Origin: an uncultured Pseudomonadota bacterium
GTDB taxonomy: Bacteria > Pseudomonadota > Alphaproteobacteria > RF32 > CAG-239
Length of the DNA: 64,000 bases
NCBI GenBank assembly: GCA_949295915.1
Contig: CASFNB010000006.1
Span: 10,541-74,540, forward strand
Reading direction: 5' to 3'
Below the pieces are notes generated by a model, which saw only the letters and a list, made by a program, of their open reading frames with translations, did no database searches and was not told where the DNA came from. This document shows positions 1,957 through 33,695 of this stretch, in pieces. How positions within the stretch are numbered: the stretch's first letter is position 1; the number at the start of each line of letters is the position of its first letter. The position numbers and the translations under genes are program-made.

Positions 1957-2002
1957 AATGAATATCTTAAAAAGAGGCCGATAAACAGCCTCTTTTATTT
2001 TA

Positions 2003-2234
2003 TGGCGTACCCGGGGGGCTTGAGGAAGAAATAATCTCCGGTGGAGATTATTTCAACGAAAGGCGCAGATTTGTTAGTTTTGAGGCAAGTGATAACGCTG
2101 CCGATAAAGCGTTACAAATCAAGTGACCGCAGCGCAGTTTGTGAGCTTGCGAACTTACAAGCAAGAACGAACCCGGGTTCGACCATCCGGAAAGCCATGA
2201 CAAAAAAGCCGTCTTCATCAGACGGCTTTTTTTA
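2003..2234 (+). repeat. tRNA-end-associated mini-element, Arg-type unit 1 (232 bp) carrying a tmRNA-tag-like frame
   Basis: Plus-strand order is as follows. TGGCGTACCCGGGGGG copies the last 16 nt of the adjacent tRNA-Arg. A 12-bp hairpin lies at 2028-2054. A start-less frame reads ...RRRFVSFEASDNAADKALQIK-TGA (tag-like part 2085-2126). Then come a hairpin holding the stop codon, a GCTTG-N8-CAAGC hairpin, a T-arm/acceptor mimic CCCGGGTTCGACCATCCGGAAAGCCA, and a hairpin with A/T runs at 2202-2233. Confidence 0.85.
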
Positions 2235-2466
2235 TGGCGTACCCGGAGGGCTTGAGGAAGAAATAATCTTCGGCGAAGATTATTTCAACGAAAGGCGCAG
2301 ATTTGTTAGTTTTGAGGCAAATGATAACGCTGCCGATAAAGCGTTACAAATCAAGTGACCGCAGCGCAGTTAGTGAGCTTGCGAACTTACAAGCAAGAAC
2401 GAACCCGGGTTCGACCATCCGGGAAGCCATAACAAAAAAGCCGTCTTCATCAGACGGCTTTTTTTA
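2235..2466 (+). repeat. tRNA-end-associated mini-element, Arg-type unit 2 (232 bp)
   Basis: Near-identical to 2003-2234 with an exact 232 bp period. Begins TGGCGTACCCGGAGGG. Tag-like frame at 2317-2358 reads ANDNAADKALQIK-TGA. Directly abuts the CCA end of tRNA-Arg. Confidence 0.85.
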
Positions 2467-2543
2467 TGGCGTACCCGGGGGGATTCGAACCCACGACCCT
2501 CGGCGTCGGAGGCCGATACTCTATCCAACTGAGCTACGGGTAC
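2467..2543 (-). tRNA. tRNA-Arg (anticodon CCG)
   Basis: Hand-folded cloverleaf: acceptor GTACCCG/CGGGTAC, D stem GCTC/GAGT, anticodon stem TCGGC/GCCGA with loop CTCCGAC, T loop TTCGAAT, encoded CCA. One U-C mismatch in the T stem. Confidence 0.9.
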
Positions 2544-2718
2544 ATCAAACAAACACCATACTCTTACACCGCTTTAACACACTTTTCCAGCAAAATTTTG
2601 CACTTTTTCGCACCTTTACTCCTCATTTTACAAAATTTCACTTGACTATTTGTCTAAATCTATGTATTAACAAGCAACAAGTTCTGTTCAAAAGATAAAA
2701 TTTAAGGAAAAAATAACA

Positions 2719-5069: not shown

Positions 5070-5575
5070 GTTCGGACAATAAAAAATTTGCCTCGGAAGA
5101 ATATGATCCGCAAAGCCGCTTTGACCATCTTGACCGATTCGAACCCGAATTTTGGAAAAAGAAAAAACTGGAAGAAATGAGCAAAGAAGAATGGGAATTG
5201 CTTTGCGACGGTTGCGGAAAATGTTGCTTGAACAAAATTGAAATTAAGGGCAAAATTAAATTTACCAACACGCGCTGCCGATTCTTAGATTGTAAAAATT
5301 GCTTATGCCGCATCTATGAGCATCGCTTTGAAAAAGTTTCCGATTGTCGCGATATTGACATAAAGGCTATCAGAGAAAAACCACGTTGGTTACCGAAAAC
5401 CTGTGCTTATTGGTTGCTTGACAACGGCTATGACTTACCTTCTTGGCATCCGTTAATCACAGGAAAAGCCAAGAGCGTGCATGAAGCCAAAATGTCTTTG
5501 CAAGGACGCGAAACCGTATCTGAAACGGGAATAGAAGACTATGAAAATTACGTTATTGACTGGCAAGACCTTTGA
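5066..5575 (+). CDS. UPF0260 (YcgN-like) protein, copy 2 (tandem paralog)
   Basis: FWKKKKLEEMSKEEWELLCDGCGKCCL ... CAYWLL ... PSWHPLITG ... IDWQDL. ATGA overlap with copy 1. Confidence 0.8.
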   Translation: MSSDNKKFASEEYDPQSRFDHLDRFEPEFWKKKKLEEMSKEEWELLCDGCGKCCLNKIEIKGKIKFTNTRCRFLDCKNCLCRIYEHRFEKVSDCRDIDIKAIREKPRWLPKTCAYWLLDNGYDLPSWHPLITGKAKSVHEAKMSLQGRETVSETGIEDYENYVIDWQDL

Positions 5576-6251
5576 TATTCAAGCCGCATTGAATATGGAT
5601 ATCAAAATCATCAAATCGCCAAAGGCCAAACGCTTGACCTTGCGAATTGATACCAAAGAGCATTTGCCGATTTTAACGATTCCCAGCCGTTGCAGTGCCA
5701 AAAGAGCGGTTGAATTTGTAGAAATGCACCGTACATGGCTGGAAGAAAATTTAGAAAAAATTCCGGTAGCCAAACGTTTTGAAAATGGCGAGATTATTTC
5801 CATCATGGGCAAAGAATACACCATCAATCATTGTCCGCAAAAACGCTGCGGTGTTTTGATAAATGAAAACACTCTGATTGTATCCGGTGCAAAAGAATTT
5901 ATGCATCGCCGCATTTGCGATTTCATTAAAAAAAATGCAAAAGAAGAGCTATTCAAAAAATCTAAAATTTTGGCAGCCAAAATCGGTTGTCACGTTAACT
6001 CAGTCAGCATCAAAGACACCAAATCTCGCTGGGGAAGCTGCTCAAGTCTCGATAACATAAACTACAACTGGCGTATTAGTTTAGCCCCCAAATATGTTAT
6101 CGATTATCTGGTAGCCCATGAAGTTTCACACCTTCTGCACCAAGATCATTCAAGAGAATTTTGGCAATGCGTCAAAAAACTTTGCCCCAATGCAGCCAAA
6201 GGCAGATTATGGCTCAAAAATCACGGCAAAGAATTATACCTATATGAATAA
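5541..6251 (+). CDS. YgjP-like (DUF45/M48-type) metal-dependent hydrolase
   Basis: C-terminal HEVSHLLHQDHSREFW zinc-binding HExxH signature typical of this family. Confidence 0.75.
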   Translation: MKITLLTGKTFDIQAALNMDIKIIKSPKAKRLTLRIDTKEHLPILTIPSRCSAKRAVEFVEMHRTWLEENLEKIPVAKRFENGEIISIMGKEYTINHCPQKRCGVLINENTLIVSGAKEFMHRRICDFIKKNAKEELFKKSKILAAKIGCHVNSVSIKDTKSRWGSCSSLDNINYNWRISLAPKYVIDYLVAHEVSHLLHQDHSREFWQCVKKLCPNAAKGRLWLKNHGKELYLYE

Positions 6252-33142: not shown

Positions 33143-33242
33143 TATAAAAAAACTTTCATTGTTGATAATATAAAAAGACTATTCTATCAAAGAACATTTA
33201 TCAACCATTTTCTATTCAAAGGTCACAAAATTAATAACAATC

Positions 33243-33378
33243 AGACAGCGCCGACGATAAAGCCTTACAAATCGAGTGACCGCAGCGCCGTTAGTGAGCT
33301 TGCGAACTTACAAGCCAGACAGGGATTTTAATCCCTTCACCCAGATACAAAAAAACCTCCACTACGGGAGGTTGGAAT
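33243..33378 (+). repeat. tRNA-end-associated mini-element, Gly-type partial unit (5'-truncated)
   Basis: Retains ...SADDKALQIE-TGA (stop 33277-33279), the conserved CCGCAGCGCCGTTAGTGAGCTTGCGAACTTACAAGCC core, the tRNA-Gly-like T-arm/acceptor mimic CAGGGATTTTAATCCCTTCACCC, and the hairpin CCTCC-N6-GGAGG. Confidence 0.8.
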
Positions 33379-33620
33379 TGGAGCGGGCTGAAGGAAAGAA
33401 AAAACTTCTGTGAAGATTTTTCTGACGTCAGGCGAAGATTTGTTAGCTTTGAGGCGAGTGACAACGCCGCCGACAAAGCGTTACAAATCGAGTGACCGCA
33501 GCGCCGTTAGTGAGCTTGCGAACTTACAAGCCAGACAGGGATTTCAATCCCTTCACCCGTATAAACTAAATTTGAGATAAAAAAAAGACCTCAACACTTT
33601 TCGTGGAGGTCTTTAGAAAT
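33379..33620 (+). repeat. tRNA-end-associated mini-element, Gly-type full unit (242 bp)
   Basis: Begins TGGAGCGGGCTGAAGG, a copy of the tRNA-Gly 3' end with one inserted C. Hairpin at 33397-33423. Start-less frame ...RRRFVSFEASDNAADKALQIE-TGA (33454-33495). Ends with CAGGGATTTCAATCCCTTCACCCG and a hairpin that has a T8 run on the minus strand. Abuts tRNA-Gly. Confidence 0.85.
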
Positions 33621-33695
33621 TGGAGCGGGTGAAGGGATTCGAACCCTCGACATCAACCTTGGCAAGGTTGCGCTCTACCCCTGAGCTACGCCCGC
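33621..33695 (-). tRNA. tRNA-Gly (anticodon GCC)
   Basis: Acceptor GCGGGCG/CACCCGC (one C-A mismatch), D stem GCTC/GAGC, anticodon stem CAACC/GGTTG with loop TTGCCAA, T loop TTCGAAT, encoded CCA. Confidence 0.9.

Follow-up and report, generated by a model that had tools for sequence, protein, structure and literature searches.

Introduction

The tandem repeats of the tyrT locus of Escherichia coli and the rtT/RttR RNA are reportedly traced to Egan & Landy (1978) and Rudd (1999). The tRNA-linked repeats (TLRs), a class first reported in 1978, comprise 22 sequences at ten E. coli loci, with one to five per locus, and the function of most of them is still without assignment (PMC8144298). They are expressed in the direction of the tRNA, and the class includes the rrA/rrB/rrF sRNAs, which are encoded between the first and the second terminator of rrn operons (PMC8144298).

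We also checked the tyrT-tyrV locus of strain K-12 on its sequence. It contains a 178-bp unit, repeated 3.14 times, with a 19-nt copy of the tRNA-Tyr end at each unit. An internal segment of the unit is a perfect 10-nt complement of this end (GGGGAAGGAT; -20.3 kcal/mol), and is followed by a TCGACC-AA-GGTTCGA hairpin. In the original prediction for the DNA studied here, no element was said to be known in which units are stacked on the 3′ end of a tRNA gene and each of them repeats that end. This is incorrect, since the TLRs of E. coli have exactly such a layout (PMC8144298), as the tyrT locus confirms.

The array located behind tRNA-Arg(CCG)

The window (the whole stretch of DNA that was analysed, 64 kb in length) contains a tRNA-Arg(CCG) gene on the minus strand (positions 2467-2543; ARAGORN; 62.6 bits with the Rfam tRNA model), which is directly abutted by two 232-bp units, a proximal (2235-2466) and a distal one (2003-2234), delimited by the sequence itself, Tandem Repeats Finder and alignment. 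The repeat features are given without strand. The presence of two near-identical units had been predicted, and all of the coordinates were reproduced; Tandem Repeats Finder reported a period of 232 for region 1998-2482 (2.1 copies, 96% matches, 0 indels, score 914). The two units are 96.6% identical, with differences at 8 of 232 positions. Two of these eight constitute a compensatory change (C-G to T-A) in the hairpin AAATAATCT(C/T)C-NNN-G(G/A)AGATTATTT, which had previously been overlooked.

Both units and the tRNA gene open, on the plus strand, with a common segment, designated R (TGGCGTACCCGG(G/A)GGG; starting at 2003, 2235 and 2467). The prediction that each unit begins with the tRNA-Arg 3′ end was therefore correct. 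The source of R is the last 16 nt of the tRNA gene (plus-strand positions 2467-2482), comprising CCA, the discriminator, 7 acceptor bases and the complete 3′ strand (5 bases) of the T stem. As R spans the whole of this strand, it ends exactly at the border of the T loop. The tRNA-Arg gene carries a G/A polymorphism at 2479 (position 13 of R, within the 3′ strand of the T stem), which is mispaired in both alleles; the same applies to contigs L001-L020, described below. The same polymorphism recurs in the R copies, and a mismatch between these and the tRNA at their own locus is frequent, indicating that homogenisation of R and the tRNA is incomplete.

The proximal unit consists of (i) its R copy (2235-2250; TGGCGTACCCGGAGGG), (ii) a scaffold of four hairpins (2250-2399; nhmmer 152-154 bits), supported by covariation, (iii) an imperfect copy of the tRNA end in inverse orientation, which pairs with R (2415-2430; CCATCCGGGAAGCCAT), and (iv) a bidirectional terminator hairpin, A6-GCCGTC-TTCATCA-GACGGC-T7 (2434-2465). 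The respective positions in the distal unit are 2003-2018, 2018-2167, 2183-2198 and 2202-2233. The terminator hairpin, which closes each unit on the plus strand, had been foreseen, while the inverted copy within each unit had not. The array has the order R-S-R-S-R, with S lying between the copies of R, and is followed by a resident terminator, T0 (GAGGC..GCCTC; 1969-1997), placed between the array and a gene encoding a 115-aa protein. Read in the tRNA direction, each unit is composed of the terminator, the inverted copy (R′), a T-loop-like hairpin, the 150-nt scaffold and R.

Related units behind four tRNAs

The window holds further copies behind tRNA-Gly(GCC) (33621-33695, minus strand; ARAGORN), in an array (33233-33620) that had escaped notice. 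This array was detected by BLAST and nhmmer, and contains a full 242-bp unit (33379-33620), whose scaffold is 91% identical to that of the Arg unit and whose two ends match tRNA-Gly, and a second, 5′-truncated unit (33233-33378). In a local BLAST comparison, the central 102 nt of the Gly and Arg units share 91% identity. The Gly unit opens with TGGAGCGGG and, near its terminator, repeats the T arm and acceptor strand of tRNA-Gly in inverted form (AGGGATTTCAATCCCTTCACCCG versus GAGGGTTCGAATCCCTTCACCCGCTCCA of the tRNA). The terminators of this array are unlike those of the Arg units. An nhmmer search of the 64-kb window with the scaffold revealed no copies beyond the Arg and Gly arrays, and no unit was found at tRNA-Ser(CGA) by local BLAST.

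Screening of the GTDB genomes with a 20-mer of the unit body identified 5 loci, all of them tRNA-linked and all in MAGs labelled as uncultured Alphaproteobacteria. They are located behind tRNA-Arg, tRNA-Gly and a 3′ fragment, probably of tRNA-Lys, which has been displaced by a P4-type integrase island. A protein-database search with a spurious 105-aa ORF that covers the units (see below) led to contigs with two tandem units behind tRNA-His(GTG) (L026) and, in a more distant species (L027), an array of two cassette types (A+B, see below). The scan of a metagenome collection added one locus, L029, with two further tandem units behind tRNA-His. On the evidence of these exact-word scans of genomes and metagenomes (5 + 1 loci), in which diverged members are missed, the scaffold family looks restricted.

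The units thus abut tRNA-Arg, tRNA-Gly, tRNA-His or the tRNA-Lys fragment, and R is matched to each of them, having a length of 16 nt for Arg and Lys, 16-19 nt for His and 9-16 nt for Gly. L026 and L029 have different T stems in tRNA-His, and in each of them the difference is mirrored in R as well as in the inverted copy. Copies are few, each tRNA having a single locus, and every copy is linked to a tRNA. Exact-core scans of the IMG/VR viral contigs with the type A and type B cores gave 0 matches, and a phage or plasmid origin was rejected on these grounds.

Conserved secondary structure

An alignment of 14 units (A2) was used to define the common structure. On the plus strand, R (16-19 nt) is followed by a conserved CT(T/G)GAGGAA motif, hairpin 1 and a long hairpin 2 (GATTTGT..ACAAATC plus GCTTT/AAAGC). 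Next come an almost invariant unpaired stretch (GTGACCGCAGCG), hairpin 3, the sequence ..AGCMAGA, and hairpin 4 (CGAACC-NN-GGTTCG; AGGGA..TCCCT in the Gly version), behind which lie the inverted imperfect copy of the tRNA end and the terminator.

RNAalifold predicted 55 pairs, 22 of them with compensatory changes. In a fixed set of 44 pairs, 96.3% of the cells are paired, and two-sided changes occur in 19 pairs, compared with 9.3 ± 1.9 in column shuffles (0/500 reaching this value) and 1-7 when the partners were slid. In some members, the tops of hairpins 2 and 3 have been entirely replaced with retention of pairing. The fold of a single unit is far more stable than that of shuffled sequences on the two strands (z -5.3 and -6.5). 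Pairing of R with the inverted copy is found in every member (-12 to -26 kcal/mol); it leaves a 3′ overhang of 3-5 nt in the Gly, Lys and L026 His units, while CCA is paired in the Arg units and the L029 His unit. The consensus folding of the two strands is about equal (-45.95 versus -42.41 kcal/mol), and the asymmetry of G-U pairs is weak (12 versus 8), with a slight lean to the tRNA-antisense strand. A promoter scan revealed nothing conserved inside or upstream of the units.

Several other identities were considered for the units. An open frame (..RRRFVSFEASDNAADKALQIK*) with an ANDN-like motif, seemingly synonymous differences and tRNA-like ends, which lacks an in-frame start codon, might recall a tmRNA. 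A tmRNA-like RNA was rejected, as there was no ARAGORN or Rfam match, the frame is shifted in L022, the peptide is not kept in L029, and the conservation is that of the covarying hairpin 2; the frame appears conserved because this long hairpin coincides with it. A protein-coding gene was discarded as well: the spurious 105-aa ORF corresponds to only 8 short ORF calls, with no Pfam match, among 5.8 billion proteins, and an in-frame start codon is lacking. Searches of Rfam at E≤10 returned only tRNA and noise, with no HEARO, omega-RNA or other family, so that, apart from a weak match of the L027 type B cassette to RtT (see below), a known RNA family was also rejected.

Selection and vertical inheritance

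Units are present at the same syntenic site in the window and in two other species (L023 and L025). Their scaffolds are 91-95% identical between the window and these species, while the same species pairs share 85-88% identity in dnaB, 81-84% in the gene of the 115-aa protein, 80-87% in the intergenic spacers and 91% in rpmB. A scaffold that is better conserved than dnaB at one syntenic site indicates both selection and vertical inheritance. In L023 and L025, the distal copy is truncated at one common point. Taken together, the synteny, the conservation and the shared truncation show that the units are old, vertically inherited and under purifying selection, and that alleles without a unit are most simply losses.

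Allelic variation and a second type of cassette

Exact-protein look-ups with two flanking genes (that of the 115-aa protein and rpmB) retrieved 20 metagenome contigs from the same and closely related populations. These include alleles with (i) no unit, in which T0 directly follows the tRNA (L013, L016), (ii) one unit (L001/L018, L014), (iii) two units (L002, like the window, and probably L005 and L008, contigs that end inside the second copy), and (iv) 1.63 units (L003, L004, L009), generated by a deletion at an AAGAA microhomology. Across the alleles with 0, 1, 1.63 and 2 units and those with two cassette types in either order (A+B and B+A), all junctions lie in R, with the one deletion at AAGAA. 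The empty tRNA-Arg site that had been expected therefore exists (L013, L016), but the wide phylogenetic occurrence of the units makes a loss the better interpretation.

It had also been envisaged that the tandem duplication could be an assembly artefact. This is contradicted by independent metagenome assemblies from the same population, which contain two units with other SNP patterns, as well as 1, 1.63 or 0 units. The idea that the units are either such an artefact or the decaying remnant of an island end can point to the truncated copies (window 33233-33378; L023; L025), but we regard it as scarcely credible in view of conservation exceeding that of the neighbouring coding genes, the compensatory substitutions and the many independent assemblies; the cross-species conservation and the covariation tests refute it.

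Some alleles contain a cassette of 177-181 bp (type B) which is unrelated to the units described above (type A), although it likewise begins with R and ends with its own terminator. Its position relative to the type A unit is variable: the order is tRNA-B-A in L012 (type B at 5569-5749) and tRNA-A-B in L020 (5341-5517); a further copy is located at 1203-1384 of L027. The type B cassette is G+C-rich; the G+C content of the genome is 37%. In the window population, each cassette type has its own terminator, whereas in the more distant species (L027 940-1384) T0 and the A and B terminators are nearly one hairpin (CCACCCRCAAGGGGTGG), which suggests local gene conversion.

A 330-bp form of type B, designated B′, was found in L019. 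It exceeds type B by a segment of ~155 nt, in which the type A scaffold recurs in diverged form (z 8.7-11.7; nhmmer 80 bits). With respect to the tRNA, this copy (L019 5499-5654; L025 5469-5624) is inverted, and the scaffold is thus a separable module for which either orientation is possible in a TLR. The inversion could have arisen by recombination between the inverted repeats R and R′.

These observations bear on the possibility that the scaffold acts at the level of DNA, as a MITE-like palindromic module, small and either mobile or invertible, that became established in TLRs, its hairpins being DNA structures or protein-binding sites. Equal folding of both strands, the discrete, inverted ~155-bp insertion in type B cassettes and the inverted repeats R and R′ that flank the scaffold would all fit such a module. 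We nevertheless consider it rather unlikely, as the copy number is very low, every copy is tRNA-linked, no transposase is present, and unpaired stretches such as GTGACCGCAGCG are strongly conserved.

Islands at the same tRNAs and the question of integration

In some strains (L002/L011, L015, L017, L009, L010) tRNA-Arg is separated from the proximal unit by an inserted island of ~16.4 kb, with genes for a large serine recombinase, a DUF927 protein, a small resolvase, HTH proteins and type I restriction-modification. L002 (island from 6603 onward) and L011 (island up to 5748) are derived from the same contig (ERZ16268202 scaffold_466). The sequence common to the junctions of this island is only TATGGCGT (8 bp), not the 16-nt R. 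The called ORF of its serine recombinase enters the tRNA gene by 66 nt on the opposite strand, and its last ~22 residues are consequently encoded by tRNA-gene DNA.

A different island is present in L024 (1258-2757), where a tRNA 3′ fragment, probably of tRNA-Lys and extending from CCA to the anticodon loop, adjoins genes for a P4-type tyrosine integrase (436 aa) and a small serine resolvase. The junction of this P4-like island is formed by the tRNA fragment of ~46 nt. One type A unit is located just behind the displaced fragment, with a 57-bp direct repeat (terminator + R) on its flanks. Neither this island nor that of L002/L011 shares any sequence with the units, and their junctions (8 bp and ~46 nt) differ from R. 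The units were therefore rejected as arms of the att sites of these islands.

The original prediction had named, as one option, miniature non-autonomous integrative elements bearing an attL/attR signature. [quoted passage not shown] Several features are compatible with this: the R-S-R-S-R layout, the precise empty site (L013, L016), copy numbers and cassette orders that vary inside a single population, a unit size equal to that generally given for a minimal attP, and a tRNA-specific R on a conserved body, as would be expected for related integrases with different tRNA targets. Similarly, cis-mobilisable elements (CIMEs) and other integrase-dependent tRNA islands have in common with the units an insert flanked by direct repeats of a tRNA 3′ end, tandem arrays and an empty allele.

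However, two recombinase queries confirmed the prediction that no integrase is encoded nearby (none within ~6 kb and none in the window), and none was found within 6 kb at the island-free loci. The units are ~100 times smaller than CIMEs and have no integrase or partner element. The att repeats of a CIME should be the crossover site of a co-occurring integrase, whereas islands at these tRNAs cross over elsewhere, at the 8-bp sequence or the ~46-nt tRNA-Lys fragment. Instead of the patchy distribution of horizontally acquired DNA, the units share one syntenic site across several species, are better conserved than the flanking genes, and are selected as a structure with covarying hairpins. The low copy number, with one locus per tRNA, and the 0 matches in viral contigs are also at odds with mobility. 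Integration of miniature elements is, in our opinion, an improbable explanation, and one that the data do not support.

Direction of transcription and function

The other option named in the original prediction, that of a small RNA gene propagating at the ends of tRNAs, comes near to the reading favoured by the evidence, and to this extent the prediction was partly supported. It is pertinent to ask which strand would yield such an RNA.

One tentative answer is that the functional product is an RNA antisense to the tRNA, with 5′ 16-19 nt complementary to the tRNA 3′ end, the scaffold, a masking mimic of the tRNA end and the terminator, and that it is guide-like or tRNA-sensing. The architecture (a variable 5′ match, a conserved scaffold and a terminator), the slight excess of G-U pairs on the antisense strand with its slightly better consensus fold, and the co-orientation of the same scaffold strand with the tRNA in B′ cassettes speak for this possibility. 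The omega-RNA of IscB (HEARO) and the bridge RNA of IS110 resemble it in architecture only, by combining a variable 16-19-nt segment that matches adjacent DNA with a structured scaffold and a terminator. The units differ from them in their low copy number and in the lack of a linked nuclease or recombinase gene and of an Rfam match.

Further points against an antisense product are that the region upstream of R, which directly follows a terminator, has neither room for a promoter nor conservation, that no effector gene is linked to the units, that no HEARO, omega-RNA or other Rfam family was matched, and that the TLRs of E. coli are expressed in the tRNA direction (PMC8144298). Moreover, complementarity to the tRNA is trivial for such a transcript because R copies the tRNA end. 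We thus consider an antisense product unlikely. A more specific version appears quite unlikely, namely that the scaffold is a programmable RNA module, whose antisense transcript uses its 16-19-nt 5′ segment to pair with the tRNA 3′ end, including CCA, under the restraint of the imperfect mimic, and acts in trans as a sensor or guide, with one copy per tRNA species and rewritten ends.

The explanation that we prefer is that the units belong to the TLR class, as conserved structured modules located behind tRNA genes, and that they are small-RNA modules of tRNA operons with a mimic of the tRNA end. We assign to it a probability of roughly 0.55. It builds on an anatomy, a structure, purifying selection and vertical synteny that are directly apparent, and on one scaffold standing behind four tRNAs with ends matched to each. 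In the tRNA direction, a unit comprises an intrinsic terminator, a segment complementary to the tRNA 3′ end, a T-loop-like hairpin of the GGTTCGA type, the scaffold and an exact 16-19-nt copy of the tRNA end. Judging from E. coli, it may be transcribed in this direction through read-through of the terminator and undergo tRNA-type processing, in which R and its complement would form a helix resembling the acceptor and T stems. Unequal recombination of direct repeats (R by itself or together with the terminator), a process requiring no integrase, would account for the changes in copy number and cassette order.

Several points count against this explanation. The two strands fold about equally well, the slight lean of the G-U pairs is towards the antisense strand, and sequence homology to the TLRs of E. 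coli is absent for type A and no more than suggestive for type B. A strong terminator opens each unit on the tRNA strand, which implies low read-through. In the Arg units CCA is paired, unlike in a tRNA end. Finally, the scaffold has the opposite orientation inside B′, so a simple sense-strand RNA model cannot fit both contexts.

Comparison with the TLRs of E. coli

The similarity to the TLRs of E. coli extends over the entire layout. In both cases, 1-5 tandem units of ~100-240 bp are located directly behind a tRNA (or 5S) gene and are co-directional with it, the final 16-19 nt of the gene upstream are repeated at the end of each unit, and the units are bordered by terminators. TLRs are placed directly downstream of a tRNA or rRNA gene, as are the Arg, Gly and His units and the unit at the Lys fragment. 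The 3′ end shared by unit and upstream gene measures 18-19 bp in E. coli and 9-19 nt here, and the one to five units per locus of TLRs compare with 0 to 2.3 units, or A+B combinations, at the present loci. The end architecture is also the same, in that the repeated end has its complement inside the unit, accompanied by a TCGAcc..ggTTCGA hairpin.

At the level of sequence, the type A body has no similarity to the E. coli TLRs and no Rfam RtT match (RF00391; E≤10). Type B shares GGTTCGACT, CCAGCGAGAG and GAGTAATCC with the tyrT unit at equivalent positions, the last of these just before R, and the global alignment of the two gives z values of 3.2-5.6. The RtT model matched the L027 type B cassette over exactly the full unit, on the tRNA strand, with 14.2 bits (E 6.7), which is below the gathering score of 45 bits, and it did not match the type B cassette of L020. 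The evidence for homology of type B with the enterobacterial TLRs is thus no more than suggestive.

Other differences from E. coli concern the use of one 150-nt scaffold behind four tRNAs, the strong terminator of each unit, the occurrence of the scaffold in both orientations, and the host, an uncultured low-GC alphaproteobacterium. Hence, the layout is not new; what is new is a scaffold subfamily of TLRs, in a new lineage.

Almost fifty years have passed since TLRs were first reported in E. coli; they have been treated as an enterobacterial curiosity, and they are found here in a distant, uncultured alphaproteobacterial lineage. Beyond what E. coli has shown, this lineage reuses one scaffold behind four tRNAs and keeps both ends of the unit matched to the local tRNA, under clear purifying selection and covariation, and with copy-number variation within a natural population. 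The alignment and the structure are now defined, and may be used for a search model and for experiments. Together, these findings are an argument for regarding TLRs as a functional and widespread class of RNA modules of tRNA operons, and not as recombination scars.
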